Made by a program: the position numbers and the translations under genes
Part shown: piece by piece, positions 13,358-54,249 of the stretch
Layout of the letters: every line of letters starts with the position of its first letter
How positions within the stretch are numbered: position 1 is the stretch's first letter
Notes under the pieces: generated by a model
Databases searched by the model: none
Told to the model about the DNA's origin: nothing
The model's input: only the letters and a program-made list of their open reading frames with translations
DNA from: Dictyostelium discoideum
Lineage: Eukaryota
Reading direction: 5' to 3'
DNA length: 64,000 bases
Assembly (NCBI GenBank): GCA_000004695.1
Contig: CM000152.2
Location: forward strand, 4,096,001-4,160,000

Positions 13358-16300
13358 ATGTCATCGATTAGAGTAGTTTGTAGATTTAGACCACAAAATA
13401 AGTTAGAATTAGCGCAAGGTGGTGATTCGATTGTATCGATAGCACCAGAAAATGATAGTGTCACAATCAATGGTTCAGAATCAAATCATTCATTTTCATT
13501 TGATTATGTTTTTCCATCAAACACAACACAAAGAGATGTTTATGATCATGCTGCAAAACCAGTCATTGAAGATATTATGGCAGGTTATAATGGCACTCTT
13601 TTTGTATATGGTCAAACTGGTTCAGGTATGTACATATATATATACATATTTATTTAATATCTTTATAAAATTTACTAATATTAACAAATAATAAATAAAT
13701 AGGTAAAACATTTAGTATGACAGGTATTAATGATCCAAATGGTGATCAAGAGTTAAGAGGTATAGTACCAAGAATGATTGAAACAGTTTTTGAATTTATA
13801 TCGAATGCAGATGAAAATATAGAATTTATTGTTAAAGCAAGTTATATTGAGATCTATATGGAAAGAATTAGGGATCTCTTAGATACAAGAAAAGATAATT
13901 TAAAAGTTAGAGAAGAAAAAGGTAAAGGTGTTTGGGTAGAAGGTACATCTGAAGTTTATATTTATAGAGAAGAAGATATTTTAGATGTTATTAACACTGG
14001 TATTAGTAATAGAGCAATTGCTGAAACAAGTAAGATATATATATAATTATTATTTATATAAATAATACATATACACTAGAAATTATGTTAATGATATTAT
14101 TATTATTATTATTATTATAGGAATGAATGCAGAATCATCTAGAAGTCATAGTATTTTTATATTAACAATTCAACAAAAGAATTTAAAGGTTGGATCAATT
14201 AAAACAGGTAAATTATATTTAGTAGATTTGGCAGGATCAGAGAAAATTAGTAAAACAGGTGCACAAGGTACAACATTGGATGAAGCTAAAATGATTAACA
14301 AATCATTATCATCATTGGGTAATGTTATTAATGCATTGACCGATGGTAAATCGACACATATTCCATACAGAGATTCAAAATTAACTAGAGTTTTACAAGA
14401 ATCGTTAGGTGGTAATTCAAGAACCACTCTAATTATCAATTGTTCACCAAGTAGTTATAATGAAGCTGAAACAATCTCAACATTACGTTTTGGTAGTAGA
14501 GCAAAGAATATCAAGAATAAAGCAAAGATTAATCAAGAAAGAAGTGCTGCTGAATTGAAAATACTTTTATCAAAAGCTGAAAATGAAATTGAAAATCTTA
14601 AAGGTTATATTAAAGAATTAGAGACTGTTTCAGGTGTAACTGTTTCAAATTTAAAAAGTAGTGGTAGTGGTAGTGGTAGTGGTAGTGGTAGTAGTAGTAG
14701 TAGTAGTGGTAGTAGTGGTGGTAGTGGTAGTGGTGGTAGTAGTAATTTATCAAATTCAGTTAATTCAACTTCAAATTTAAATACCTCATCAAATACTTCA
14801 TCATCAAATGTAAATGCAAATGCAAATGTAATAACAACAAGTGTTTCAGCACCAACATCACCAAAAGATACAGAATTAATTAAAGTTTTACAAGAGAAAT
14901 GTATACAATTAGAGAAACAATTATTTAAAAAAGAAGAGGAGAAGAAAGAAATATTAGAACAATTGGAACAACAACAAGAACAAATTCAAGATAAGGATCA
15001 AGAGATTGAGGGATTGAATTCAATGATTGAGAGTTCGAATAATATTAATTCTTTATATCAAAATAGTACAAATGAAAATAGTGTATTGAATGTACAATTA
15101 TCTGAATTAAAATTAGCACTTGAAAAAAGTAGATTCGAAGCTACTGAACAATCTTTAACCATTGAAGGATTGAATGAAGAGAATCAATCAATTAAATCTC
15201 AATTGGAGATTTTAAAAGATCGTATTGCACAAAGTGGTGATTCCTCAATCGCTTCATTAGTACCATCAACTCCAAAATCCTCAGCTGAAATGGATCCATT
15301 AGCTACCGCTTCAAAACATGCAGATGAATGGAATGAAAAAGCTGAACAATTAAAATTATTACAAAGAACACCTTCAAAAGCTGTCGGTTCTTCAAAATCA
15401 AATACTGCAACTAGTTCACCAATAATTTCTTTAAATATTTCTGAATCTGATAATATTGGTTCTGGTGCAACAACAACAACTAATAATAATAATGCAACTA
15501 TTACACCTGCTACAAGTAGTAATAATAATGTTGAACAACAACAACAACAAGTTGAAGAACTTTTACCATCAGTAAATGAACAATTATTAGAAAGTGAAAA
15601 TCAAAAATTACAAAAGAGAATTCAAGAGATTGAATTAGAGTTTGAAACGTATAAGATTGCCAAAGAAAATTTAACAATGCAAAAAGATTTAGAGATTGAA
15701 CAATTATTAGAGAGTCAACGTATTAGTAGTAGTTTTGTTGTTGATCCACGTAACTTGGATGATGAATTGCCAGCAGAGATGATGTTACAAGCTGAACAAA
15801 TTCGTAAATTGATTGCAGAAAACTCTGAACAAAAAGTACATTTCGAGGCAACAAAGAATGAAAACTCGAAATTAAAGAATAGAATTGAAATGATTGAAGA
15901 GGAGACTAGACAACGTATGGAGGAGGAATTGAATGTATTGCGTGAACAAACCAATCAGAAACTATCGGAATTTGGGTCATTGAAAGAATCTTTGATTAGA
16001 GATTTAGAGAATAGATGTCAGAAAGTTATAGATCTAGAATTGGTTTTGGACGAATTACAAGACCGTATCGTGACTTTGAACGAGCGTCTAAAGAGAGTTA
16101 ATAAACCTGGTGGTGGCGATCAGGAGGCTGCTTTCGTTCAATCGAAATTGGATGAAATCACCGCTGTAAAACATCAATTGGTCATTGAGAATAATAAACA
16201 CAAGACAGAGGTTGAACGTTTGAAAAAGTTATTATCACATCGTGGTGAACATATTTTAATTTTAGAGAAAACAATGGCAATCAATCAAGAGAGTCTTTTC

Positions 16301-16714
16301 AAATTGGCTTTAAATCATAATGCATTAACCATTGAGCATGATCGTGCAAAGAATGAATTGGAGAAATTAAATAATTTATTATCTCAAGTTGGTGTCGATG
16401 CTCAAAATACTGGTGGTGCTCGTGTTGCTAGAGTTATTAGAGGTGGTGGTGGTAATAATCAATTAAAAAAATTTAATCATTCATCATCATCATCTACTTC
16501 ATCATCATCAGCTTTAAATCATTCATCTATAAATAATAATCATACAACTCCAACTCCATTATCTGCAAATCTTTATAGTAATACAAAAAGAAGTACAAAA
16601 GAATTAAATACTGGTGTAAAAGCTGAACCTTTATCATTATCTGGTTCTCCATTTAATACTTCAATACCTTCTTCTCCAAATCATACAAGTAGTAATAATA
16701 TTAATAACAATAGC

Positions 16715-16748
<34 letters not shown>

Positions 16749-17107
16749 TAGGTAATAGTGGTAATATTGGTGGTGTTGGTAATAATAATAGTAGTATAAG
16801 TAATAGTAATAATAATAGTAGTAGTAATTTAAACGCAAATTTAAATGGTAATACACCAGTTAAAATTACATCTGAAAATAGTTCATCTTCTTTATGGAAT
16901 ATATTTAAAAAGAAATCACCATCTTCAACACCACCTAGTTCAACAAATAATTTATCACCACAATCACCACAAACCCCATCTCATTTAAGTGCTGATGGAA
17001 GTGGTAATATTTCACCAAACCTTTCCCCACCAATTCCTGTCAATTTCTCATATACTCCTGCAGTTGTAACATCTTCAACAATTAACAAAGATCAACAAAA
17101 AGATTAG
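13358..17107 (+). CDS. kif3: Kinesin-1 (conventional kinesin heavy chain). Plus-strand join(13358..13625, 13703..14029, 14121..17107) gives 1193 codons.
   Basis: It opens [15 protein letters not shown]. The P-loop GQTGSG|KTFSM is split by intron 1 (g|gtatgt ... aaatag|gt). Switch regions NAESSRSHS and LVDLAGSEK are present, followed by a neck, a long coiled coil, a (GGT AGT)n Gly/Ser linker and an S/N-rich tail. The 1193-aa length matches my recollection of DdKif3, but I cannot fully exclude kif5. Confidence 0.75.
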
Positions 17108-18267: not shown

Positions 18268-19562
18268 AAAAGAAAGTTTAAAATATTGATTTATTATTTT
18301 TTTATATTATGTTTATTATTATTATTATTATTATTTTTTAAAAAAAAGCAATTGTAACAATTGGTGGTGCAATTTCATCAAGTGCAACTAATCCATTAAG
18401 TTTAGTTGCATCATTAAGAATTATTTTAGGTCTTGGAGTTGGTATGTCATCAGGAGTGTGCCCATTGATGGTAGCAGAAGTAGTACCAGTTGAAAAGAGG
18501 GGTGTATATGGTTCAGTTTTTCAATTATTTATTACACTTGGATTGTTATGGTCAAATGTTATGGGTTTATTATTAATTGAATCTGGTATACATAATTGGA
18601 GATGGATGTTTGCAATTGGTAGTTTACCAGGATTTTTTATGTTATTATGTTGGACAGTTTTAAATGAGTCACCAGTTTGGGTTGAAAATCAAAGATTAAA
18701 AAAAGAAAGAAAATTACAAGAGTCGGCAATTTCAAATTCTAAACCAAAAAAGAGTTCATTTAGAATTTTAATGGAAAAAAAGAATAGAAGACCATTGTTT
18801 ATTGGTGTGATTTTAGCAACTTTCCAACAATTGACTGGTATCAATGCTTTTATGTATTTTTCAAATTTAATTTTCTTTAAAGCTGGATTTACTGGTGAAT
18901 ATGGTGCTATTACTTGTTCTTGTATTTTACAATTATGGAATGTATCATTTACAATTATTGCTGCATGCACAGTGGATCGATTGGGTAGAAGACCATTGCT
19001 TTTCATTGGTTCAATTGTTATGACATGTGCTGATTTATTGATTGCATTGTTTTATGTTGCTTTGACTGGTAAGGTTCAAGGTTGGTTATCAATTATTTGT
19101 TTATTTATTTTCGTTGCAGCATTCGCTATGTCCATTGGTACATTATTTTGGTTTATTGTAAATGAAATCTTTGATCCAGAGGCAAAAGATATCGGTGCAC
19201 CAATTTTAATTGGTTTACAATGGTTATTCAATATGTTACTTTCTTTAACATTTGTGGGTGCAGTTCCATATATTGGTGATAGTACAATGTTTTGGATTTT
19301 TGGTGGTATTGGTATAACTTGTGTTGTTTTATTGGCAATTTTCTTACCACCTGAAAAAATTCAACAAAGTGAATTAGAATCTGACGTTTTACCAGATTCT
19401 TTTAAACAAGCAGCTACAGTTTATAATGATGAAGTTGAATTATCACCATCTGAAAAAAAGAATAATTTTTATATTCCAAATGAAGATGCCGAAGAAATTT
19501 TAGAAAATTTATCTGAACTTCCAAGTGAAAATATGGAAATTCCTAGAAATATAGAAAATTAA
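17808..19562 (+). CDS. MFS sugar (or inositol) porter-family transporter. Plus-strand join(17808..18207, 18349..19562), about 537 aa.
   Basis: The 12-TM layout has the motifs GGLIFGYNTGIIGPAL and LADWIGRKTVVLLTG|AIVTIGG (split by a phase-1 intron, donor gtaaat at 18208 and acceptor aaaaag at 18347..18348). It also has VAEVVPVEKRG, NESPVWVENQRL (PESPRWL-like) and PPEKIQ (PETKG-like). Confidence 0.8.
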
Positions 19563-21366: not shown

Positions 21367-21528
21367 CTAAAACCACCAAAAAAAAAATAAAAATAAAAAT
21401 AAAAATATAATATAATAATAAACGAGTTTTTTTCATTTTTCATTTTTCATTTTTTCATTTTTCACTCTTTTTTTTTTTTTTTTTTTTTTTTTTTCCCAAA
21501 CAATCAACCATATTAATAAAAAAAAAAA

Positions 21529-21786
21529 ATGATCTGTAACAGGTTACAAAATTTTTTTAAAATAAAAAATCAATTAAATAAATCAATATATTTTAGATCA
21601 TATACAAGAAGCTCAGATGAAGTAGTTTTAAGAGATATTAATTATATTAATGAATTAGGAATCAAAAAAAATAATGATAATAATGATAATAATAATAATA
21701 ATAATAATAATCAAACATTAACAGAAAATAATAGTAATAATAATAATAATGATATTAATAATAATCAAACATTAACAAAAGAAGAA

Positions 21787-21822
<36 letters not shown>

Positions 21823-22119
21823 CAAACATTTACAAAAGAAGAAATTAAAAATAATTATAAAAATAATTATAAATATAATTATAAATATAATTATCAAGTA
21901 ATTGAAAATGGTTATAAAATTCTTGATATTTATGAAGGTAATAATAAAATATCAATGCAAGATAAATATTATGAATTAGCACAAAAGGCAAAAAAAAATA
22001 CTTTAGTATATTATTTTAATAGTATTATGAGAGAGAGAAAAAGGTTTTTATTTGAGTAAGTTGGTTTATAGTATTAATATCTTTTTTTTTTTTTATAAAT
22101 TCAAATTATACTAATTTAC

Positions 22120-22160
<41 letters not shown>

Positions 22161-24341
22161 CAAGATTGACATGTTATTTACAAAATTGTAGAAATCCTCT
22201 TTTAATTAAACATTTATGGAATGGATTAAATGGTATATTAAAGAGGGATCCATCAATTGCTAATAGTTTTTTAAAATATTTTGGTGATAATGGAAATCCA
22301 ACACATTTTAGATTTGTAGTAAATTCATTAGATTTAGATCAATGGGATTCAGATACATGGGATTGTATATTATATTTTGAGATTAAAAGATATATTTTAA
22401 ATGAACCTGGTAGTGATAAAAATTTAATTGATAAGTTTATCAAAGAAATAAGAATTAGAAAGGTGGAATTTAATAATCAAATGTTGAGTTCATTATTAAA
22501 CTATTATATGTTTGTAGGGGATTTAAATTCTGTGAAATTCCATCTTAGACAATTAAAAGTTGATACAGTAACCTCAATAACAAAGGGTCAAAATGAGGGA
22601 ATGGCATTTCCATTTATAATTCTCTCAAGTATTACAAAGTATTTCCTTGATATTAATCCATTGGAAATTATTAATATAATTAAATCATTAATTCAAAAAC
22701 ATGGTACACCAATGTTGGAAGATATTAATTTCACTCAACTCGTTCATACACTAGTGAAATCCAATAGATCAGATGAGTTCTTAGATATTTGGCAATCGAT
22801 TCCAGAGAAGTCAAAAACATTATTAGTATACAATAGAGTGATTGCTTACTTTGCCTTGGTTGATGGTAATATTGATTTTGCAAATATCTTTTTAGAGAAA
22901 TTAATGCAACATCATAAACCAAACTTTCAATCCTTAGAACCAATACTTGTTGCATCAATTAAAAGAGATGAACCAATCATCAAGTTGTCTGCAATCTTAA
23001 AGACAATGAATTTACTTGATTTGAAATATTCAGCAGCTATTATTTATTGGTACTTAAGAAAATTCCCAAAACAATTCCATAGAGAGAAGATGGCAGTTAG
23101 GCTACTTCATAATCCAGATCATTTCGCTAGAGTTTTTGTAGTTTGTGATAGAATTAATGATGAAGAACATATTGAAATTAAAAACTTTCTTTTAGATTCA
23201 ATGGCAAAATCACCAAATCCAAATAGTTTCTTAGATGCTATCATCTATGAATACCTTTATATAGATGATTTCCAAAGTGCATTATCATATTATACCATAA
23301 AAGTTAAATCATTTGAATCGTTCAAAACCAGTGAAATGCTTATGGCTTTTGCTGAATACCATAAAAAAAAAGGTGAGACTGAATTGGTTCAACATTTCAC
23401 ATCACAAATAAGTCAAACAACACCATCCACTGGTAGTTTACAGAAAGTTCTTTATTTTCTAGAGAAAAGGGTTGAAGAGAATTTTAAAAATAATTTCTTA
23501 AAAAAGGATAGACTAGATTCAATTACTCAATGGTTATCTCAAGTAACTCCAATAGAGAATTCAATCAATGAAATTGGTAGTTATAATAGTTTTATTATGA
23601 AAAATGGTGAAATCGATAGTTCAATAGTTTCTCATAAAAATTTAATTTATAATTCAATCAATTCTAAAAATAATTTATTGGAAAAAATATTACAACCAAA
23701 GAATAACTCTACTGAAATTAAATTTGAATTAGAGAAATCCTTAGAGAATCAAAGATTACCTCCATTGGAAACATTATTCAAAATGTTGGATACAATTTAT
23801 TTAAGTGATCCTCCTGGTTTCCTTTCTTATATTTTATCATTGAATACTCAATCTTCGGTATTACTACTCACCTATTGCTATTCAACCATCATTAAATTCG
23901 ATATCGAATACGGTTTAGTTCAAATGGAACCTGCATTCAAAGCAACATCTTTAACAATGTCACTTTGGAGTGCCCTTTTAATAAATTCAATTCGTCAAGG
24001 TTATTATAATATCACCTCTAAAATCCTTTACTTTTTAAAAAACTCTAGAAAATTAATATCCAATCAAGCCCTATTCATATTTGGTCAAGAAATTCAAAAT
24101 ATCAGATTCAAAAAAAATAATATCAATTTTAATTATAATGAAAATGTTAAATTGGATTATCATGAAATTAGTAATACTGATGCTTCAAATCTATTCAACT
24201 CTAATCAAGATGGAAAATTCAAAAATTATTATTTAAATAATTTTACAGAGTCTCAAGTTAATGATTTATATAAATCTATTTTAAATACAAAAGTTTCAAT
24301 TTTCTCATTATATCAAAAAATTGTTACGATTCAAACAAGTG

Positions 24342-24415
<74 letters not shown>

Positions 24416-24886
24416 ACTACTACTACTACTACTACCGATCTTACATTTAATCATTATTTTACACCTTTTAAAAATTCATGTATTAGTATTTTAATTGATA
24501 CTGATGATTTAGAAAATGCAAATTTACTCTTATCAAGATTAATTGAATCTGGTTATTATAATCGTGAAACTTTATTATTGGCAGTTGAAATCCTTAGAAA
24601 ATCAAAAAAATTCACAAATGAACCTGAAATCATTCATACATTAAAATCAACTTTAACACCACTATTAAAATCTTTAAATATTACAAATGAAGAACTTTAT
24701 CATTTAACTGAAGATCCAAATGTTTTTGAAAATTCAAAATTCATTAGATCTTATTTATCAATTCCACAAATTAATCAAATTTGTGAATTAAGAAATCAAA
24801 CAAATTCATATTCAGTTTTAGTTAATATGAATAAAGCTTGTGAAGAGAAAATTTTTAATTTAATTGAAACTTGTAAAGCCATTTAA
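21529..24886 (+). CDS. Pentatricopeptide/TPR-like helical-repeat protein, probably mitochondrial. The proposed model is join(21529..22055, 22165..24886), with 22192 as an alternative acceptor. Exon 1 carries a presequence-like N-terminus MICNRLQNFFKIKNQLNKSIYFRSYTRSS.
   Basis: The long ORF 22166..24886 has no in-frame ATG at its start, because the ORF track begins it at a TTG. The upstream ORF 21529..22059 ends FLFE* exactly at a gtaagt donor (tt tga|gtaagt, phase 2). Both candidate acceptors (cttcaag at 22163..22164 and ttgtag at 22190..22191) restore the downstream frame. The repeat character (YNRVIAYFALVDGNIDFANIFLEKLMQ..., LLNYYMFVGDLNSVKFHL...) is PPR-like, but the family call is tentative. 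Confidence 0.5.
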
Positions 24887-24969: not shown

Positions 24970-25650
24970 TTATGCTTGTGAAGATGTTAACCATTTTAAT
25001 TGACTTTTATATGACGGAGTTGATTCTAATTTATTTAATAATTCAATTGGATCGGAACTAACAATAATTGATTTTGCAAAATCACTATCAACAAAACCAC
25101 TACCAACACTTGTTTTTAATAATGCTACTAATGGATCATAATAACCATTTATATTTAAAATACCAACTGGTTTTGAGTGAATACCTAATTGATTCCATGT
25201 AATGCATTCAAATAATTCCTCTAATTTAATTTAGTTTTTATTAGTTTCAAATTTAATTATTTAAATTAAGATTTGATATAATTGTTTCCCAAACTTACCA
25301 AAAGTACCCATACCACCTGGTAATGCAATAAAAGCTTCGGATGAATTATACATAATTTCTTTTCTGGTGTGCATATCATCAACAAATACAACTTCACCAA
25401 CAGTTACACCTGAAATTTCTTTTGGTGATAATGATCTTGGAATGATACCTTTAACTCTTCCACCGGCATTTTGAACACCTTGTGAAACTGCTCCCATAAT
25501 ACCAATATTACCACCACCATAAATTAATCCATAATTTCTTTTTGCCATTTCTTTAGCTAATACTTCTGTTACTTGAATATATACTTCATCATTTCCTTTT
25601 CTACTTCCACAAAATACACAAATATTATTGATTTTATTAACTGTTTCCAT
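24970..25650 (-). CDS. LOG-family protein (cytokinin riboside 5'-monophosphate phosphoribohydrolase-like, TIGR00730 fold). Minus-strand join(24970..25220, 25299..25650), about 200 aa.
   Basis: Exon 1 reads CVFCGSRKGNDEVY...GLIYGGGNIGIMGAVSQG...IALPGGMGTF|, with the donor g|gtaagt at 25293..25298. Exon 2 reads EELFECITWNQLGIHSKPVGILNINGYYDPLVALLKTSVGSGFVDSDFAKSIIVSSDPIELLNKLES..., which matches the PGGxGTxEEL...TW.QLG.H.KP signature of LOG proteins. Confidence 0.8.
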
Positions 25651-36806: not shown

Positions 36807-39800
36807 ATGGATAATATATATCAAAGAATAGAAAATTATCTTATAAAATTATTTCAAACAATATCAGAAACAAATAATAACAATAATAATAATAATACAA
36901 ATAATAATGTTGGAATTAAATTTGAAAATGATTTATTATTAGTTAATGAATTAGGATCAATTATATTAAAAGAATTGGTTCTTGAAGAAGAGATTGGATT
37001 GGTTGCATCATTATTATTTACAGGTGATCATAGTTTATTAAAGTATTTAGAAAAGTCATCAACCATTTCCAATAAAGAGAATGTGAAGATAAAAGTGTCA
37101 ATATTGAATTTAATAGCAGAGTTTATCGAGATATTACAAGTTAGAACTGATGATTATGCAATTGCAATAAAGAATACCTGTGTATTGGTATTCAGAAAGG
37201 ACCAATCCCATTCAGTCCAAGCCGCAGCTTTTGGCCCTATTAAAAAGATATTACATCTAATGTCTCGTGTACTTAAACAGGGTTCAATCGTTGCAGAAAG
37301 TTTTGGAGTGAGTGAGATGACACAACTGTTTTTATTGCAATTCACATGTGGAAAGCTAACTCAAACAGTTCGTGGTGAAATTATAGTTGTGCTTGGTTTA
37401 TTCACTGAATATTTCTCAAGTAATATGTGCGATCGTAATCAGCAATTATCATTCATATTCATGGAGACGCTCGGTGGCCAATTGCGGTCAAAGTCACCCG
37501 AGTCCACTTTAATTCAGTCGTGTTTGAAAGGATTGAATTCGTTATTGGTTCATTTCAGTGGCGATTTCATTGCAAGTGATCCAAAGAATGTTCAATTGAT
37601 ATATCAATATGTTTACATTTGTTTGGATCCTGCATCGTCGACTCAAAGATTCGAAATTCCAAGAGCAGCTATGAAAATCGTTGCGAGACATGCAGTTTTA
37701 TTACGTCAGTATTTGGCAGAACACTCACAACCTTTCTATACACGTATTGAGCATTGGTGTAATCATATCAATAAATTAAATCGTGATATAGCATTCACGG
37801 CAGTCGATTCATTCTTTCAACAAATTTCAAAGGAACTTACAAGTGGTAATCGTAGTTTAGAAGCTGATCAATCAACTTTTAAATTCTTTATTCGTAAATT
37901 CTATTCAATCTTTGAAAATAACAATTCATCACGTTTTGAACTTTCAATTGCAATTAGAGGTTGTGGTAGATTCGCTTCACCTGTTAAATCTTTTATGGGT
38001 GAATGGGAATTAAAATCCTTATTAAATTCTTTATTTAAATTTTCAGAAAAATTAATGGTTGTGTAAGTTGTTTTTTTTTAATTAAATTTAAATTAAATTA
38101 AATTAATAATAATATTTCTAATTTTATTTCTATTTATTTTTCTCAAATAGTAAAATTGAAAATATTGATGAAATTACATTACATTTATCAAGTTTTATAA
38201 ATGCATTCGCATGTATTTTATATGAATTAAATGAATTGGAATTTTGGTATTTAGATCATATTGAACAAGTTTTAGAAACTTATTTTATAATATTTCCACA
38301 TTTATTTGTAAAATCAAGAGATAGATATTTTAAAGCAGTTAATAGATTAATTAGCTCATTATTTTATCATGGTGAATATTTAAAGATATTATTAAGTAGA
38401 TTTGTAAAGAAAGGATTATTAATTACATTTTCAAAACCAAATGATTCAATTAAAAATTTAATTACAACTGCAAATACACCATTTTATCAAGTTTATAAAG
38501 ATCTTTGGTATAATCTTTTAAATCCAACAATTGATACAATTGATAAAGATTTAAATTCAACAATAAAAAAAGAAAATAATAATAATAATAATAATAAAAA
38601 TAAAAATAATAATAATAATCAAACATTAACAAAAGAAGAAATTTCAAAATCAATTAAAAAATTAGTTTATGATGAGATTGTTTCAAGTATTTTATCAATT
38701 ATAAAGAAATTAGATTTACAATACCAAAAGGATGAAAATGATAATAATAGTAATAGTAATAGTAATAATAATAATAATAATGATCAAGATAATAATAAAA
38801 TTTCAATTATTGAATATGAATCAGAAATTAATCAATTAAAACCAGTAACATCAAAAGATATTGAATTATTTTTAGGATTAGTTGAATTTTTTAAATTATT
38901 CATTTCAAAGTATAATACAGAATTATTTGTTCAATGGATTTATATATTTGGTAAAGAAATGATTAGTTTTTCAAAGAAATATCCATTAATTAGTGGTTTT
39001 TATAAATTGGTTCAAATTGTAATGCAAATTTGTAAATCTCAAAAATATTTTAATGAATTACAACAAGATGATAATATAAATTCAGTTATATTTAATAATC
39101 AAATTATTGATGAACAACTACAACAGCAACAAGATATTATGGATATTGATGATACTGATAATAATAGTAATAGTAATAATAAAATCAATAAGAAATTAAC
39201 AAATAGTTTGGAAGAAGATAAAAATAATTGTTTTATATTATTTAAAAAATATATTAAAGAAGTTAGTAATTTTATTAGTCATTATAAAGATGAATTATTA
39301 AGTTCATGTATTGAATTATTATTATCATTACCAAAACAATTGATATCAATACCATTGTTAGTACCAATTGCAAATTTAGCATTCCAATATGGTATTAGTT
39401 ATTTACCATTAGCTCATGTTGGTTTGAATGCTATCGAATATTGGAATTTAGTTGTACCAGATCAGGTTCATAAACATTTAGATCAATTATTACCAAGTTT
39501 AAATGATTATTTAAAGATTTCAACAAATAGTTCAGATTCAACTTCAGGTGGTGATATAGATATTGATAGTGGTGGTAGTATGGGAGGAGGAGGAGTTGTA
39601 CCACCACCATCATCATCATCAAGACATAGAAAAATGAAATTTAAATCAAATAGTTCATTAATTGATCCAAAACAATTACAATTTAAAACATCAATTGAAG
39701 ATTTACAAAATAGAATTATTAGATTATTAGGCCAATTGGGTGGTGATAATGTTCATTTCCTTGGAAAAGTTAGTTTAGTTGGTGAAGAGATCGTTAATGG

Positions 39801-40537
39801 TGTGGCATGGGACACTGAGCCAAAGGTATTAATTAAAATACCATTTGCAGATCAAAATAATATTGATATTTATTTGGACGTAATTTTACCAAATGTTGTA
39901 AATCTTGCAGAGAAATCACCAAATCGTCAAATTAAAGTTGCAGCAGGTGAATTACTTCATTCAGTTTTGTTAATGATGATTGGTAATTCAGCAAATCAAT
40001 CACAGGCTAATCAAATATCGTATAGTAGATTATATAGAAAGATATTCCCATCATTAATTTGTTTATCGACAGATGTTGAACAAGTTACCAAACAATTATT
40101 TCAACCATTAGTTTTTCAAATGATTCATTGGTTCACTCGTAATAAGAAACAAGAGTCTGACGATACAATGAATTTATTGAATGCAATAGTTGATGCTGTT
40201 GGTAACCCATTGGATGGTGCAAGAAGAGATTTCGCAGGTCAATGTCTTTGTGAATTTGCAAAATGGTCTCTTAAAAATACTTCAGTTAAACAACAAGAAA
40301 AGAATGCTTTCAATTTCAAATCAATCTTAAAAAGAATCTATAGTCTTGCACATCATCCTGATCCTTATAAAAGATTAGGTGCTGCAATTTCTTTCAATCA
40401 ATTATATCGTATTTTCCGTGAAGAAGATTCATTAGTTGATCAATTCATTTTTGAAATTTTACATAATATATTTTTTAGTTTAAGAATTGGTGATGATTTA
40501 ACAAATACAAGTAGTAGTAAAAACAATAGTAATAGTA

Positions 40538-40568
<31 letters not shown>

Positions 40569-41977
40569 TAGTGAAGATGGTACAGAAGATTCAATTGTTG
40601 AAATTGCATCAAAATATTCAAATGTTTTAGCAGCATTAACAAAAGTTATAATTAAACGTGCTGATATGTTAAATAAACCATCAAATACTAGAAGAGAACA
40701 TAAAGATTTATCACAATTTGTACAGTGGGTATTCCAAAATGGTTGTAGTAGAACTGAGTCAATCGTTAGATATGAATCAATGATACTTTTCACACAATTG
40801 GTAACATTATTACCAAATATTAAAACACCATTACAATGGGTAAAAGAACGTATAAAATCTAATGGTATTCAATTCATTGTTTCAATTGCAGAACAACAAG
40901 GTGGTGGTGTTGGTGGTGGTAGTAGTAATGGTAATACAAGTTTAGGTAGAATTCCAAAGATTGAAATTGGTAAACATAAAGATATAGAATTTTGGTTTAG
41001 AAATTTATCAACAAGTTTAAATATTTATTTATGGTTCTTTTCAGAAGGTTTCTTTGAACCAATTCAAATTTTAACAAGTAGAGAATTTAAATCTTCATTA
41101 TTATCAAGTGCTTTTCATACTTTTACAACTCAATTTTCAATGTTAAATTTTAATTCAAATTTAAAAACAAACCAACAACAACAACAACAACAGGTATCAA
41201 TGTTTTCATCAATGACACCAAAAGAAATTGATCAATTTAATAGATTAAAATGTAATGTAATTACAAATTTATTTGGTTTATATATTTTATTATTAGAGAA
41301 ATATAAATTTGAACAAGTTATAGATTATGGTGGTGTTGCTTTTGTACAATTGTTGGTTAAATGTTTAATGGATCCACAATCAGTTGGATTTGTAAATAAT
41401 TATTTAGAAGAGAGAGAAGTTGAACTTTCAAAATCATCACGTCAAGATATTCGTAATTTAATGTCTCGTACTTTTAAATTCCCACCACTTTTAGAAATTA
41501 TTAATAATATTATAAAATTATTAATTCAAATTAAGCCAAAATATAATGATATATTACATAAAGAATTAATGGAATATATATTACCAAATAATAGTAACAA
41601 CAATAATAATAGTAGTAGTAGTGGTAATAACAAATCAATGTTTAGTTTAATTGATATTAGACAATTAATTAATACAGAAGGTACAGATAGGTTAATTCAT
41701 TTAATTCATTCATATCAAATACTTTATAAATATAATTTATTGGATTCAATATTATTAGAGAATTATAATGAACAATCTGAACAAGGTATTCAAGATTTAC
41801 CAAAATCTTCACTTGAATTTAGTGAATTTATCTTTGATTATTTATTTAATAATTGTGAGAATTTATCACCTTCAAAATTATTAATTTCAAAAGAATTAAT
41901 TCAATTGGCTTTAACAATTGGTATTAAACCAATTAAATTATTATCTTTAATAATTAATCCAAATGTACAAAATACAA

Positions 41978-42011
<34 letters not shown>

Positions 42012-45000
42012 TACAACCACAACAACAACAAGCACTAATAATAATAATGATAATAATAATGAATTTATTAAAGATATTCATGATATTTTTTATAAAACAT
42101 TATTTACAGAAATTAATAATTATATTTCAAATAATTTTCAATTGTTTTTACCATTGTTGGCAAATAGAATTATTGAAACTAATCAAATTCATAAGGTTTT
42201 AAATGATGTATGTATAATGAAGCAACAACAACAACCAAATCGTGGATTTAAAGATATTATTGAATCAATTGTATTATTCTTAAATTCAATTTCAGAATGG
42301 ACATTAAATTCAAATTTGAAATTAGTTGAAAAAGAAAATATCATTGAATTTACAAAGAACCTTATAAAGATTGATCCAATACAATTCTTTGAAAATAAGC
42401 ATTGTTATGAATTTGTTTATAATATAATAACAAATTATTTATGTCGTTCAAATCCTTTAACATTTAAAAATAAGGTATTGGTATTATTACCTTATTTATT
42501 ATCTTATCCAAAACATAATAATTTTGATTTAGTAAGTACAATTATTTAATTTTTTTTTGTTTCATTTTTAAAATAATTATTTATTTTAATCGTACACTAA
42601 CTTTTAATTTTTTTTTTTTTTTTTTTTTTAAATAAAAATATACCAGATAAAACAAAAATTAAATGAAATTGTTGTTTATGATTTCCCATTAAATTCAAAA
42701 GATTTAACAGTTAAATCACCAATTTATAATGAATATATTACATGTATAGAAAGATTATTAGAGACATTTGAACTTACAAAGAATCCATTAGTAATTGATA
42801 CATTATTACATGTTTTAAAAGAAACTGATCATACACATATTAATTATATTAATTTATCAATTGAAAGATCAATTTTATCAACAAATGATATTGAAGCAAA
42901 AGAAATATTTAGTCATTGTTTTGAGTAAGTTTTTAAACAAACTTTTAATTTTATATTATAATTATTATTTAATTTATTAACTCTTTTTTTTTTTTTTTTT
43001 TTTTTTAATAGATTATTTTTAAATCATTATGATGAATTAAAAATTACATTAATTGATAAATTTTGTGTACCATTAATTAGTCATATGAAAGAGAATATAT
43101 TAGTTCAAATTTTTAGTCAACATTTAAGTTCTTTAATGTCAATTATTCAACCATTGCAACCAAAATATTTATCAGATTCACAAGAAAGAAAATCATCAAT
43201 TATTGAAAAGATTTGTTGTTTCCATTTAATTGAAGCATTATATCAATCATTACCATCAGCAATTATAAAGGAGAAAATTAATCCATTCTTTTATGATAAA
43301 CCAGATGGTAAAGGTACAGAGTTGACAGCAGCCATTATGAAAGCAGCCCATTCTGCAAAATCAGAGAAATTAACATCCGATGATAAATATGTTACAAGAT
43401 CATTATGTACTAAGTATCATGGTGCTGCTTTTAGTGCATTGGCAAGTGTTATAGTTTCAACTCAAACTAAAGAAAACTTTTTCCATGTTTTCTTCTTTAA
43501 AGAGAATAAAGATAAAAATGAATACCTTTGGGAGAACATTATCGATACTGATCAAGTTTTTAACTTTCAACCAGAGACTAATTTCCTTGTTTCCTACAGT
43601 ACCCCTCAATCATTATTTGCAAATGATTTAAGATATCTTTCAAGTCAATATTTAGTTGATAGTAGTTTAAGTCAAGATTTTATTGCTAAAAACTTTTTAG
43701 AAGGTGATAATAATTCAACAACAAATAATAATAATGGTGATGATGGTATTATAATGCAAGGTCAGTCGCAAAGTGGTGATAATGAAAATCAAATATCAAA
43801 TGATATAGAAATTGATCAAGTTAATTCAAATCCATCAATGATTGCAATGTTAAAAATTATTGATTTCTATCAAAAGAAATTTGTAGTCACACCACCATCT
43901 TCAATATTATTTGGACAACAATCACAACAACCAAAACCAACAGTTGGAGATATGCCAAAATGGATGTTTGAAATTTATCAAAAACTTCAACAAGGTGTTC
44001 ATCCAAATATTGTAATTTTTATGATAAAAATCATTATCAATAGACCACAATACTTTGAAAGATTTCATGAACTTTGGATACCAATTCTAATGGATTATGT
44101 AGTTTCAGAGGGTAATGGTGGTAATGGATTACATTACTTTGTACGTGATGTTTGTTTTATTTTATTGAAATGGCCAAATATTTATAAATCTCAAGATGGT
44201 GGTGGCGGCACTACATTAGAAAAACATCTTTCAAAGTTTGTAAATCATTTAATGAAGAATACCTATTGTACCGATAGAAGAATTTTAAAGAGTAATTTAA
44301 ATATTGTGAAATCATTTGTTGAAAGGTGGAAATCACTTTTCAAAGTTGATAAATCAATCATTTTAGAGTTATTATCAACAAAAGGTGATTTCAAGAGTAA
44401 AAGTAGACAAATTAAAACAACTGGTTTAGTATTATTATCAATTTTATTAAGTAATGGTTATCCTGCATATGATAAAGAATATGATTCAAATACCATTAGT
44501 GAATTTAAATTTTATCAAGTTTTATTAGATCATTTACAAGATTTTAAAGAACTTTATGATGCTGCATCTGAAGTTTGTGGTATGATTTTATTATATCTTT
44601 CAAAGCAACAACAATCACAACAACAACAACAACAATCAATATTCCCACAATTATTAAAAGATAAAATTAATTCAATATTAAATAATAATGAAAATCAAAG
44701 AGCATTTAGTTGTCTTTATTTTATTGGTTTACATTATCCATTATTTTTACAAGGATTTTATGGTAAAATATTTAATTTATTACCACAAATTTCAAATGAA
44801 ACTAGATTGATTGCATTAAATATCATTCATTGGTGTGTTGAAGATATTCAAGATCTTTATACGAAATTGAAATCAAATAATATTGAAAATTTAATTAGAA
44901 TTAGAGAAGGTGAGATTCAAGTGGTAATCTTAAGAATTCTTTATAAATTGGTTCAAAAAAGAGATACTACTTTTGGTACTGTAAATCAAATTCTATCATT

Positions 45001-48000
45001 ATTACTCTCGAATAATTGGTTCACTTCAAATGTTACTAATGAATATAGTCGTTCGCTATATTATGATATAATCATTTATATCTATAATAACTTTATTGAA
45101 TATCAAGATCAATCAAATGAAAATAGTAAAGATTTAGTATTATCATTATTGATTGGGTTATCAGACGAAAGTGATTCAATCAATAAGAAACTTTTACAAT
45201 TTTGGGATAATAATAGTAAAACTTTATCAGCATCGAGTAATCAAAGATTACAACAATTCTTTGATATTATGTATTCACCAGAGACTGAATCGAAATGGGT
45301 TGCAAATAGTTGTTGTCTCTTATTCCAATTATGTAATAGATCAAGTGATTTCACTAAATTACTTTTCGATAAACCATTAAGTGAATGTACATTCAAAGAG
45401 GTACAAGTCGATTCTTCTTGGCAACATAGAACTTTAAATATGAATCCATTATTTAGTTCTTCTCAATATGGTATTGATGATGCTACTACCGATGAATCAA
45501 ATGGTGATTCTATGCAATTGGATGAAATTAGAGCAACTCAAGCTCCAAATTTTACATTAACTCAAACTGCATTTAGTGAATTTTATCCATCATCTTCACA
45601 ATCTTATGGTGGAACTAATAATAATACAGGTAGTAGTCAATTATCATCATCATCATCATCAAGTGGTAGTCAAAGTAGTAGTCAAAATAATTCATCTTCA
45701 AAAAGAAAACAAAAAATTACAAATGATCCAAAATTAATTAATAATTCTGAATTAAGAAGAAGATTTAAAAAGATTGATGATCGTGGTGCAGATGAAAGAA
45801 TTGTAAAATTTGCAAGATTACAAGTTAAAAGAAATATTGAAAGAGAAGCATACTTTGAAAAGAGTAAACAAGCACGTGAAAATCAAATTACAATGATTAG
45901 GAAGTATAGAGTTGGTGAATTACCTGATATTCAAATTAAATTACAAGATATTATTAAACCATTACAATTATTATGTCAACGTGATTCAACTATTGGTGTT
46001 AATGTATTCTCGTCATTGTTTACTGCTTTATATAAAAATACACCAAAAGAAAGTATTAGAACATTCCAATGTAATATTAAGAAATTAATTGATTCAATTG
46101 TTGAAAGATGTAAATTTAATTCAACCCTTGTCTCATCGATATTGAATATCTCTGAAAAGAATTTAGAATTTTCACCTGAATTTTCAAAGATTAAAGATAT
46201 CTCTTTAAATTCAAATAATCATCCAATGGCAATCATACTTTGTGAGAAATTAATATTATCATTACAAAATACAACTAAAGCATCAACAACTAATCAAGCA
46301 CAAAAGTTACAACAACAACAGCAATTGAATCAAGGTTGGGATAGTTTAAGAGAATTATATAAATCATTGAAAGAGGATGATATTATCATGGGTTTAATTG
46401 AAAAACAAATGGGTGGTGATATACCATATACTAAAAAAGCATTGGAATTTGAATTAAAAGGTGATTGGGTTAATGTTTTAAAGGTATATGATGAAGCAAC
46501 TTCTAAATTAGAGAGTGGTGAATTGAATCAGTATCAAGGTAATCTCTCAGAGAGTGAAACTGCGTTATGGGAGAATGGTCGTTTAGAATGTTTTACAAAA
46601 CTTTGTAATTGGTCAGCATTAAAAGATAATTTCAATAGTTATTATCCAAACCCAAATCAAATATTTAAAGAAAAGAATTGTGATTTACTTTTAAGCTATT
46701 TCTTTGAATTCAATTTAAAGGTTAAAGAGAATTGGAATTATTTATATCAATTCATTGCTGATTTGGCAAATACTAAACAATATCAATATTTAGAGAATAA
46801 ATTCCCTGGTGAACTTGCATTCTTGGAGGTAACAAGATCCGATCATAATAAAGCTTCCTATTATGTTTCAAAGTTTTATCAAGCCTTTAAACATCAATGG
46901 TCATCATCTCATCCATTAGCAATTGAATCACGTCATAGAATCTTACAACCACTTCAAAAGATTGTAGAGGTTGAAGAATTTTTAAATTTAACTTCAACTC
47001 CAATCATTAATACTTTAAAATTGGATACCCTATTAACTCAATGGAAGAGTAGATTCCCAACTAAATTAGATGATATCATGGTTTGGGATGATTTAATCTT
47101 TTATCGTTCAGTTTTATTAGAAAAGATTTATGAAAGATTCTCAAGTTTTACCTCTGATAAAAGTTCCGATGAAAAGGTTAAATCAACTTTAATTCAAGAA
47201 AGAGCTATACTCTATCATAAAATGTCAAAAGGTGCACGTAAATTAGGTAATATTGTTGTATCAGAGATTTATTTCCGTCAAGCAGTTAAATCATACCCAA
47301 AAACAAAGGATAATGATTTAGCTTTCCCTTTGGTAACTTCATTGATTGATATCTATTGTACAAAAGCTAGAAATTCACCATCACCAATTGAAACTTTAGA
47401 TAGATTTGTAAAGGCTTTGAAATTTATTGAATCAAAAAAAGATGAAGAATCAATTATAAATTCAAATGAAAATCTTCAAAAATATTTAATGATGCATGGT
47501 GATATCTTTTGGGATATTTATCAATTAGATAAGAAATTAGGTTCAACATTAGTAATTGATTCTTTTAAAAAGAATTCTTTACCAATTAATTTAACTTCAA
47601 TTCCAATTAATTCATTAAAAGATGAATTATTTAATTCAACTTTTAAATGTTATAGTGAATCAATTAAATTACATCAAAAATCAACAAATTTATTAAATAC
47701 AACATCATCATCACCTTCTTTAAGTATTTCTTCTTCTTCTTCTCCTTATTCCTCTACTTCTTCCTCTTCACAACCAAAATTATCAAATGAAATTTTAATT
47801 GAAAAAACAAAGACAAAGAGTGCTCATTTGAAATTTGCAAACTTTTGTGATAATATATTAAAGGATAAAATTTCTCAACAAACAACACCAACACAATTTA
47901 ATGAAGAAGTTATTGATTTAGCAACATCAGTTATAGTTTCAACATTAGAGGCAATTAAAGAAGAGATACCAGGTTCAGTTGATAAATTCCCAAGATTATT

Positions 48001-49996
48001 AGAAATTTTAACACAATTTGAACAATACTCTGTGATTGCACGTGAATTTAAATCTAGAGTATCAACAATACCATGTTGGATGTTTATTAGATGGATTAGT
48101 CAAATGTTCCCATATTTAGATTTACCACAAGGTCCTTTGATTTTACCAATACTCTTGGAGATTGCAAAATGGTATCCACAAGCAATTTATTTCCCTTTCA
48201 AAATTAGTAGTGAACAATTTGGACCATTGGCAAAGAAAATATCAGCACCATTGGAAAAGGAATTAATTAATCCACTATTGGATACTTTAGTTATTGAATT
48301 CCAACGTTTAACTCATCCAGAACATCGTTTCAAAGATTATATGGAAGAGATGAAATCATTAATTAAAGCAACTCCAAAAGATTTAAATGCAATTGCAAAA
48401 TTAAATAATGAAATCTATGATGACTCTTTTAATCCATCAACAGTTTCAGGTGATTATAATTTAAAATTTGCCAAAGAACATGAAGCTTCCTATTTATCAA
48501 ATTTTGGTAAAGATTCAACTAAATTAGCACGTATGGATCAAAAGAAATTCTTGGAGATTTTTGCTGAAATGTCTGGTAATATGAATAAAAATATGAAACC
48601 AAATTCAACTGCCTCTATGAAATTAAAGGATTTCAGTGGTTGGTTAGCTGATTTCGATCGTTCAAACTATCAAACTTCACATCAAATGGAAATACCTGGA
48701 CAATATGATGGAATTGGTAAACCACAACCAGAAACTCATGTAACCATCTCATCATTCGATACCAATGTTTTGGTGATGGGTTCATTACGTAAACCAAAAC
48801 GTGTAAAGATACATGGTAATGATGAACTAGATTATCCTTTCTTAATTAAAGGTGGTGAAGATCTACGTTTAGATCAAAGAATTCAACAATTGTTTGGAAT
48901 TATGAATGAAATTTTAAAACGTGATACAGCATGCAATAAACGGTCACTCAATGTTACAACCTATCAAGTTGTACCAATGACAAGTAAAGTTGGTATCATT
49001 GAATGGTTAAATGACACTAAACCACTTAGAGAGATATTGGAGGAACAATTAGCACATCAATTAAAAACACCTCGTTCAAATGTTTCAATATCAAAATTGG
49101 AATCAACAAAATATCATAATGATTGGATAAACTCTTTTGCAAAATATTTGAAACCAAATTCACCAGTGGGTCCATTATATCAACAAATGTTTATTCATGC
49201 CACTCGTGATGATTGTGCAAAGAAATTGGAGAAACAACACTCTAAAGTTCCTGAAAATCTTTTACAAAATGGTATTTGGTCACTTTCATCATCTCCAGAG
49301 AGTTATCTTTTCATTAGAAATTCATTTGCACGTTCATTGGCATCATTCTCTGTTTGTTCCTATGTCATTGGAATTGGTGATCGTCATTTGGAGAACTTTT
49401 TAATCTCTCAAAGAGATGGTCGTTTAATTGGTATTGATTTTGGTCATGCTTTTGGTACTGCAACTCAATTCCTTCCAATTCCAGAGTTAATGCCTTTCCG
49501 TTTAACTCGTCAATTCACTAGTTTCCTAAGACCATTGGATTCAGTTGGTTTACTCAATCACAATATGACCTATACTTTAACGGCATTACAAAATCAAAAA
49601 GAAATCCTCTTAACAACTATGGATGTTTTCGTTAAAGAACCACTTTTAGATTGGAGCAAACTTGCTACTCGTTTAGTAAAAGAACAAGGAAAACATCCAA
49701 AAGATACTAAAAATGTTTGGTTCCCAAAACAAAAGATTCAAATTGCAAAGAAGAAATTAGAATTGGTCAATCCTGCCTATATAACTTTAGAAGAGTTATC
49801 AGGCTCGGTTCATTCTGGTCTCCCATATGAAAAAGCTCTCTCTGAAATTATTAAAGGTGATCCAAAACATAATATTAGAGCAAAAGTTAATAAAGTATGT
49901 TCTTCTGTTAAAGAGCAAATAGATTGTTTAATAGATCAATCAACTGATCCAAATATCCTTTCAAGAGCTTGGGTCGGTTGGAATGGTGCTTTATAG
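36807..49996 (+). CDS. dnapkcs: DNA-dependent protein kinase catalytic subunit (DNA-PKcs, PIKK family). Plus-strand join(36807..38062, 38151..42531, 42647..42924, 43012..49996) sums to 12900 nt, which is 4299 codons plus a stop.
   Basis: The C-terminal PI3K-like kinase domain has the active-site motifs GIGDRHLENF and IDFGHAF. DNA-PKcs-specific strings are present: FLPIPELMPFRLTRQF, MDVFVKEPLLDW, NVWFPKQKIQIAKKKL, and the FATC tail DPNILSRAWVGWNGAL* (compare human DPNILGRTWEGWEPWM). The three introns have gtaagt donors and all phases check. The total length equals my recollection of Dictyostelium DNA-PKcs at 4299 aa. Confidence 0.85.
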
Positions 49997-53239: not shown

Positions 53240-53274
<35 letters not shown>

Positions 53275-54246
53275 CATTACAGCAGCAAAATGAATAGTAA
53301 AAACTAAAGGTAAAAAACAAAAAGAAGTCATAATAGTTTTCATCATTGGACTAGTATCATCAGTCATTGAGAAACGAACGGAACCATATTGGAAAATTGA
53401 AGATACTAATGGTAAAATATAATATGGATCGGCCATAGAGAGATTCTTAAACCAAAGGGCACCAGCATCAACGAGTAGATTTGTATCACCACTTAATTGA
53501 CGTAAGAAAATGAATGGATAAATGATGAATGGCATTTGAAGCATGTTTAAACCAAGTGTTTTCATTGGTGAGGTGTCATGTTTTGCAAATGATTTTTTTT
53601 GGAGTTCTGCAATTTTGATTCTACCCTCTTGAGTACCATCATTGAGGTAGGAGTGTTTCTCCATATCCTGTTTAACCAATCTCATTTTAGCAGCATCTCT
53701 TTGATTTCTAATTGCTAATGGTAATGTTAAAACACGAATTGCAATTGCTGTACCAACGAAAATGCTAACCCATGGTAACCCATATTGTACATGAAGTTCA
53801 TTAAGTTTTGCAATTAAGTCGAAATTAAATTGATGTGACCATTCTGTAATTGTGAATGCGTCTGGTCCCATTGTTGGTTTTAAAATATAACTTGGTAAAA
53901 CTTTATTACTAATTGTATCAGTTATAACCTCTGTTGTTGTTGTTGATGCTGATGATGATGATGCTGTTGATGAGAAATCACTAATTGGTGTATTTATATC
54001 AGTATCAACATTATTATTATTATTACTATTATTATTATTATTTTCAGTTGAGAAGAATCTTTTATTAAAATTTTTAATATTATTTTCTAAGAAATTTGAT
54101 TTTGAAAAAGTTGGTAAAATTTTTGATGTTGATGATAATGATTGTGATGATGAAAATAATATTGGTGATACAGTAGTTGTTGAAAAACTTTTTATAAATA
54201 ATTTTTTATTCATTCCATTTATTGGAACTCTTTTTAAAGCATTAAT

Positions 54247-54249
<3 letters not shown>
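52918..54249 (-). CDS. Mitochondrial inner-membrane insertase OXA1/YidC family. Minus-strand join(52918..53205, 53281..54249), about 418 aa, with a presequence-like N-terminus MINALKRVPINGMNKKLFIKSFS.
   Basis: The core reads LPWVSIFVGTAIAIRVLTLPLAIRNQRDAAKM...MADPYYILPLVSSIFQY...CFLPLVFTIHFAA|SLNIYWAVNSMIFAFTNWFLKS, typical of Oxa1/Cox18 (human PIYILPLAVTATMW..., [20 protein letters not shown]). The intron is gct gct|gtaatg ... ttttttag in phase 0. Confidence 0.75.

Follow-up and report, generated by a model that had tools for sequence, protein, structure and literature searches.

We analysed a 64-kb window of Dictyostelium discoideum DNA (64,000 nucleotides (nt), the whole stretch to which all coordinates below refer). 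Its DNA has ~20% G+C and many runs of Asn codons, its genes include an FNIP-repeat gene, a split DNA-PKcs gene, a kinesin, COG2 and an Oxa1-like gene, and its best protein matches all come from Dictyostelium species. The subject of this report is a further gene on the forward strand, at 21529..24886, which spans 3358 bp and contains one GT-AG intron. Sequence comparisons indicate a genuine 5' coding exon at 21529..22055, predicted to be spliced by a 109-nt intron to the long open reading frame (ORF) that follows it. The joined gene would encode a mitochondrial protein resembling the pentatricopeptide repeat (PPR) proteins.

Gene structure at the locus

The gene model is made up of the following elements.

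21529..22055, forward strand: exon 1, 527 nt; 175 codons plus the GA of a split Glu codon, ending in phase 2
21677..21879, forward strand: Asn-rich low-complexity spacer in exon 1; a 57-nt (19-aa, N-rich ...QTLTKEE) tandem repeat in 3.6 copies (TRF)
22056..22164, forward strand: intron, 109 nt, 88% A+T, with a GTAAGT donor and a CAAG acceptor
22165..24886, forward strand: exon 2, 2722 nt including the stop codon at 24884-24886; amino acids (aa) 176 (third base) to 1082
22165..22191, forward strand: stretch between two in-phase acceptors, 27 nt, codons LTCYLQNCR; coding in all orthologue models

The ATG of exon 1 at 21529 is preceded by a run of A's, and an in-frame TAA lies four codons upstream (21517-21519). 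With the local base composition, under which one codon in eight should be a stop, 175 open codons would occur by chance with a probability of ~9e-11. The 176-aa ORF called mechanically extends from 21529 to 22059, and its stop codon (TAA, 22057-22059) is embedded in the sequence G|TAAGT. Because this TAA lies inside a GTAAGT donor that begins at 22056, exon 1 is taken to end at 22055 in phase 2. GTAAGT is found just 9 times on the forward strand of the window.

The 906-codon ORF downstream (22166..24886) is bounded by an in-frame stop at 22112-22114, and its first in-frame ATG, at 22481, is codon 106. Joining the two ORFs through the acceptor at 22164|22165 gives a coding sequence (CDS) of 3249 nt and 1082 aa with only one stop, at its end. 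The intervening sequence carries a TACTAAT branch-like motif near 22108-22114 and an uninterrupted run of 36 A's at 22121-22156. It has the GT donor, the AG acceptor, the short length and the AT-richness of spliceosomal introns in Dictyostelia, and its removal restores a single open frame.

The initial annotation had observed that the 906-aa ORF has no ATG at its beginning, that the 176-aa ORF ends at a gtaagt and that two in-phase acceptors (exon 2 from 22165 or from 22192) both restore the frame, and had proposed that the upstream exon belongs to the PPR-like ORF. Each of these observations was reproduced. The two "separate predictions" that were to be merged are mechanical ORFs only. Three lines of evidence, presented below, back the proposed join: the conserved position and phase of the intron, selection on exon 1, and a predicted helix that runs across the junction.

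An exact-match look-up in a collection of 15 billion proteins, with D. purpureum and T. lacteum represented, returned no match for the 176-aa ORF, the product starting at ATG 22481 or either of the two joined proteins. This absence is uninformative with regard to annotation, since 7/7 long control ORFs from the window were also unmatched.

Conservation of the exon join

Orthologues were sought with the joined protein in a homology search, followed by a HMMER search against 1.8 billion representative proteins. The first search returned three annotated proteins that span the query from Met1 to the C-terminus: P0001 from D. cf. discoideum (1075 aa, 89% identity in alignment), P0002 from D. citrinum (997 aa) and P0003 from D. 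dimigraforme (1027 aa). HMMER added only four relatives, namely P0004 (D. purpureum, 28% identity to the window protein), P0005 (T. lacteum DLAC_05808), P0006 and P0007 (another dictyostelid). With just four further relatives among 1.8 billion representatives, the family looks small and confined to the dictyostelid lineage. Two further word-indexed homology searches yielded nothing new beyond the name of P0005, probably as poly-Asn words swamped the candidate list. The orthologues, like this gene, are labelled "hypothetical protein" and carry no precomputed Pfam domain.

The exon structure of six orthologous loci was rebuilt from DNA and protein. Every one of them contains exactly one intron, always in phase 2, with lengths of 81, 178, 93, 97, 74 and 73 nt. 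The same aligned Glu codon is split (GA|A or GA|G) in D. cf. discoideum, D. citrinum, D. dimigraforme, D. purpureum and the P0007 species, and the T. lacteum intron lies ~5 aligned residues off, within a poorly aligned stretch. In all six species the merged two-exon model is already annotated, and it is therefore unlikely that the merged model for D. discoideum will be news.

The P0006 model (770 aa) begins at about residue 203 of the window protein, without the presequence and the part encoded by exon 1, so that its own 5' exon may have been missed.

The order sugar transporter, FNIP, PPR-like gene, LOG is common to the three closest species. In D. purpureum and the P0007 species the orthologue adjoins a DREV-type methyltransferase gene, whereas the loci of the D. 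discoideum group have FNIP and LOG instead, which indicates that the gene neighbourhood has changed within the genus.

Selection on the coding sequence was estimated as the ratio of nonsynonymous to synonymous substitution rates (dN/dS, Nei-Gojobori) between the window and D. cf. discoideum. The ratio was 0.09 for codons 1-29 and 0.18 for codons 142-176, values that for 29-35 codons rest on few substitutions, and 1.2 for the Asn-rich spacer between them (codons 30-141). For the first 105 codons of exon 2 (aa 177-281) it was 0.32, and for the remainder 0.35. The low ratios at aa 1-29 and 142-176 argue that exon 1 is translated and constrained at both ends; its start, M-I-x-N-R-L, is conserved in four species.

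Between the same two species the intron differs in length by 4 + 24 = 28 nt while the flanking exons stay in frame. As 28 is no multiple of 3, the intron evolves as non-coding sequence. In D. cf. discoideum the A-run of the intron is shorter, with 18 A's ahead of the AG, and the 57-nt repeat of exon 1 is longer; D. citrinum and D. dimigraforme do not have this repeat. Both the repeat and the A-run are fast-changing length polymorphisms.

These comparisons bear on a reading of the locus as two genes, in which a 176-aa Asn-rich protein (21529..22059) would be followed by an independent protein from ATG 22481, and the GTAAGT would be coincidental. Mechanical ORF calling does yield two ORFs, and the A36 run of the intron resembles those of Dictyostelium intergenic DNA. 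However, at least four species conserve, at the protein level, the 105 codons that precede the first ATG of exon 2, with the low ratio given above against the closest of them, and the position of that ATG is itself unconserved (codons 106, 106, 27 and 43 in the four close species, none near the exon start). Moreover, the six orthologous loci all keep an ATG-initiated ORF that ends on a phase-2 GT donor at or near the same codon, and the fold of the protein starts at aa 143, in exon 1, with a helix that crosses the junction. We regard two separate genes as highly improbable, and the single two-exon gene is retained in what follows.

The exact 3' end of the intron can be placed at either of two AG dinucleotides. 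The AG at 22163-22164 gives an exon 2 from 22165, and the AG at 22190-22191 an exon 2 from 22192, with a CDS of 3222 nt and a product of 1073 aa from which LTCYLQNCR is missing. The shorter product could be the main form or a regular alternative isoform: the second acceptor is in phase, reads TTGTAG|A, and its AG is conserved in D. cf. discoideum. Coding sequence, however, would be conserved in this way in any case. All the orthologue models splice at the AG equivalent to 22163-22164, each time directly after an A-run, and the nine residues, one of them at a conserved aromatic position, are aligned in these models with no gap. The same residues lie inside a confidently predicted AlphaFold helix (170-183). 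It is accordingly improbable that the second acceptor provides the main or a regular form; the start of exon 2 is taken as 22165, and the acceptor at 22192 is kept as the source of a possible minor isoform.

N-terminus and fold of the protein

Three further features of the coding sequence are needed for the interpretation of the product.

21529..21615, forward strand: predicted matrix-targeting presequence, codons 1-29, MICNRLQNFFKIKNQLNKSIYFRSYTRSS; 6 K/R, 5 S/T, 0 D/E
21952..22055, forward strand: final ~35 codons of exon 1 (aa 142-176); predicted helices 143-155, 159-165 and 170-183, with a predicted local distance difference test (pLDDT) score of 70-85
24342..24413, forward strand: (AAT)24 tract, encoding poly-Asn and followed by poly-Thr; disordered loop in the solenoid (aa 901-937)

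The first 25 residues have a net charge of +5, and within residues 1-29 the hydrophobic moment reaches a maximum of 0.59 over 11 residues. A comparable N-terminus was found in 6/6 full-length orthologues, with at least 27 acid-free, basic and hydroxylated residues, a net charge of +4 to +5 and the first D/E at positions 28-87, and it persists even in those orthologues whose sequence has diverged. Among long background ATG-initiated ORFs the property was present in 2/29, which were the PPR-like gene itself and the Oxa1-like mitochondrial protein. A signal peptide was considered as well and rejected, for the N-terminus has no hydrophobic core. The initial annotation had described this N-terminus as basic, hydroxylated and acid-free, and the description holds and extends to the orthologues. 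Import of the protein into mitochondria is probable on these compositional grounds.

The motif FRSY|T, of the R-3 type with R23 at position -3, was matched by eye to the textbook consensus and suggests a cut by the mitochondrial processing peptidase (MPP) after FRSY, near Y25/T26. YFRSY is invariant in four species, and its counterparts are FRNF|S in P0004, NRTF|S in P0005 and KSF|S in the Oxa1-like protein. The latter, an Oxa1/YidC-like (60KD_IMP) protein at 53269..54249 on the reverse strand, was used to illustrate a Dictyostelium presequence from within the window. Over ~55 residues its N-terminus, MINALKRVPINGMNKKLFIKSFSTTTVS..., is basic and lacks acidic residues, and it contains the motif KSF|STTT.

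The structure of the protein was predicted with AlphaFold2 from an alignment of eight sequences (mean pLDDT 71.6). Residues 1-140 are disordered, with a pLDDT below 50, and aa 143-1081 form an all-alpha array of short paired helices with the Asn/Thr tracts as its only interruptions. Since the helices begin at aa 143, both exons contribute to the helical-repeat fold, exon 1 its start and exon 2 the rest. Helix 170-183 crosses the splice junction at a pLDDT of 81-84, which provides independent support for the join of the two exons.

At the level of motif searches the result was negative. Pfam reported no PPR or tetratricopeptide repeat (TPR) match in the window protein, either whole or as ten fragments of 87-120 aa at E<=10, so that the PPR/TPR search of the downstream ORF that the initial annotation had proposed came out empty. 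The only Pfam matches of the whole exon-2 ORF, Menin and Secretin_N_2, both sub-threshold, were rejected because they fall on Asn/Thr runs. No Pfam PPR match was present in P0001-P0004 either. P0006, in contrast, exceeds the Pfam PPR cutoff (30.7 vs 25 bits), and P0005 and P0007 have faint PPR matches; TPR matches in P0004 and P0006 are sub-threshold only. A search of the PDB by sequence with the family profile gave noise only (best E 0.04, on a low-complexity region).

Two kinds of comparison nevertheless place the protein close to the PPR fold. First, alignment in hhalign of the profile built from the eight family sequences to eight copies of a consensus PPR scored 42.9 (E 9.3e-5, probability 59%, 207 columns), a result that is supportive and not decisive, as the template is a hand-written designer-PPR consensus. 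The alignment covers about six repeats, at query positions 235-463, and the comparison scores were 26.7 for eight copies of a consensus TPR, 13.2 for a reversed unit and 6.0-17.7 for 30 shuffled units. Secondly, the top 20 Foldseek matches in the PDB are all PPR proteins, among them PPR10 (E 1.7e-6), designer PPRs, a PEP-associated PPR protein, plant mitoribosomal PPRs, human mS39 and LRPPRC, and TPR scaffolds rank below them. Organellar PPR proteins were at the head of both PDB fold searches.

Measured against the usual marks of the family, the window protein thus stays below the cutoffs of the PPR hidden Markov models (HMMs; PF01535, PF13041 and PF12854), and it does show a profile similarity greater than that to TPR and a solenoid geometry of the PPR type; 34-aa repeats seen by TPR HMMs were not found. 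From the Pfam score of P0006, the hhalign scores and the Foldseek ranking we conclude that the protein is PPR-like in fold and probably in ancestry, which stops short of a demonstrated member of the PPR family. The earlier designation as a PPR-type protein therefore stands at the level of fold and fails at the level of Pfam.

We consider it likely that 21529..24886 is a single two-exon nuclear gene for a 1082-aa mitochondrial PPR-like protein that binds RNA or belongs to the mitoribosome. According to this proposal, removal of the AT-rich GT-AG intron of 109 nt, which interrupts a conserved Glu codon between its second and third bases, would yield a protein of three parts. The first ~25-29 basic and acid-free residues would act as the matrix-targeting presequence and be cut by MPP after FRSY. 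A disordered, fast-evolving Asn-rich spacer (aa ~30-140) would follow, and the third part would be an alpha-solenoid of ~940 residues composed of PPR-type helix hairpins of ~35 residues each. The mature protein would bind organellar RNA, with a role in how a mitochondrial transcript is processed, stabilised or translated, or it would sit on the mitoribosome; this function is suggested by the activity of nearly all the structurally closest proteins.

The same gene and the same location are also consistent with a solenoid that acts as a scaffold between proteins, for instance as an assembly factor of a respiratory complex or as an adaptor in import or quality control. TPR-type scaffolds (IFT-A, Ctr9, Ski3 and Cdc27) match in the fold searches too, the score of the consensus TPR array likewise exceeds those of the shuffled controls, and the mature protein, which no PPR HMM matches, is near neutral (pI about 7.5-8.2) and not strongly basic. 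However, the consensus PPR lies clearly above the consensus TPR (42.9 vs 26.7), and one orthologue is above the PPR cutoff. We hold a scaffold function to be unlikely and continue with the RNA-binding or mitoribosomal protein.

The proposal of a mitochondrial PPR-like protein should be interpreted with some caution, as several points weigh against it. Few substitutions underlie the ratios at the two ends of exon 1, and for aa 142-281 dN/dS is near 1 in comparisons with more distant species. The gene models of the orthologues may themselves be ab initio predictions, and the second in-phase acceptor could give rise to an alternative isoform. Targeting was judged from composition only. Finally, the window protein has no PPR or TPR match in Pfam, whole or in fragments, and the family profile has no relative in the PDB by sequence.

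The practical value of these results lies in the correct gene model, in which the protein starts at 21529 and not at the internal ATG 22481; only with the full model do the targeting peptide and the helices that open the fold come into view. The gene adds one more divergent, HMM-invisible PPR-like candidate for the handling of mitochondrial RNA in Dictyostelium, and it illustrates that structure prediction can classify fast-evolving helical-repeat proteins where sequence profiles fail. More tentatively, and with rather less confidence than we place in the gene itself, this gene and its orthologues might make up a mitochondrial PPR-like family that is restricted to dictyostelids, evolves very fast and escapes motif searches. 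In that case the PPR complement of D. discoideum would be larger than the 12 proteins reported, and the protein could be a gene-specific factor in the processing or translation of a transcript cut from polycistronic mitochondrial RNA. These findings change no concept: genes of two exons, presequences and PPR-like proteins limited to one lineage are all well known.

Neighbouring genes and known systems

Several other genes of the window are likewise divided among ORFs.

36807..49996, forward strand: DNA-PKcs gene, split over at least three long ORFs (36807..38066, 38236..42549 and 43085..49996)
18444..19562, forward strand: sugar-transporter (MFS) ORF
14123..17107, forward strand: 994-aa ORF of a kinesin
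25261..25650, reverse strand: LOG / lysine-decarboxylase-like ORF, 129 aa

The Pfam domains of the DNA-PKcs ORFs are DNA-PKcs_N, CC1-2, CC3, CC5, FAT, PI3_PI4_kinase and FATC. GTAAGT is found at 38063 and 42532, at the ends of the first two of these ORFs, and the ORF that follows has no ATG, as in the PPR-like gene. We take the chromosome that carries dnapkcs to be chromosome 3. The transporter ORF matches the Sugar_tr profile only from position 119 onwards, and one or more exons before 18444 must therefore exist; the syntenic orthologues have 531-538 aa. The kinesin ORF starts in the middle of the motor domain (profile positions 195-327), and consequently the 5' part of the motor must be encoded in one or more upstream exons. 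As the orthologous neighbours of the LOG-like ORF have 200-208 aa (PF03641, PF18306), that gene must continue in a further exon downstream on the reverse strand.

Among proteins of known structure, the maize protein PPR10 and designer arrays of the P class (PDB 4m59, 4oe1 and 5i9f) are the best Foldseek matches of the window protein (E ~2e-6). The designer consensus could be aligned to the family profile, over the ~207 columns and roughly six repeats noted above, and motifs of the window protein such as VYNRVIAYFALVDGNIDFANIFLEKLMQHHKPNFQS resemble the 35-aa PPR unit. Unlike in PPR10 and the designer proteins, however, the repeats are irregular and broken by disordered Asn/Thr loops, and their register is too degenerate for an assignment of the nucleotide-specifying residues 5 and 35. 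PPR10 is, moreover, targeted to plastids, unlike the window protein with its predicted mitochondrial location.

The plant mitoribosomal PPR proteins (rPPRs) mS83/rPPR10, mL101/rPPR4, mL102/rPPR5 and mS80/rPPR6 (PDB 9gyt, 6xyw) have 8-11% identity to the window protein and no homology to it at the sequence level, and with 310-665 aa they are much shorter. A literature search found no structure of a Dictyostelium mitoribosome. The fungal mitochondrial proteins Rmd9 (PDB 7a9x) and CIA84 (PDB 7zkq) have the PPR fold and no sequence similarity to the window protein. Since CIA84 acts on protein, in complex I assembly, the fold alone is no proof of RNA binding.

Within Dictyostelium, a mitochondrial compendium with a proteome has been published by Freitas et al. 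2022 (PMC9118663). Manna, Brewster and Barth 2013 (PMC3753752) described 12 D. discoideum PPR proteins, PtcA-PtcL, which are encoded by nuclear genes and have 423-1405 aa. These contain a few degenerate PPR motifs of the P class, several have a length of about 1,000-1,400 aa, most have predicted N-terminal mitochondrial targeting signals, PtcB-GFP is mitochondrial, and PtcH-L are just ~25% identical to their D. purpureum homologues (PMC3753752). The window protein has diverged in a manner similar to PtcH-L, given its 28% identity to the D. purpureum protein P0004. In contrast to PtcA-PtcL, it contains no PPR motif that Pfam can detect. Its size (3358 bp, 1082 aa) also differs from those of all 12 ptc genes, which were compared by tabulated size.

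One of these genes, ptcH, deserves separate mention, as it comes nearest in size and is located on chromosome 3, with 3247 bp and 1057 aa (PMC3753752); a literature search on ptcH returned nothing beyond the table in that report. No combination of ATG, GT-AG intron and stop anywhere in the window gives 3247 bp and 1057 aa, and on this comparison of size identity with ptcH was rejected. The predicted mature protein (aa 26-1082) has 1057 aa, the same number as full-length PtcH, an agreement that is probably a coincidence. The gene described here may be a thirteenth PPR candidate of D. discoideum, or it may correspond to a listed ptc gene from a different strain or gene model.

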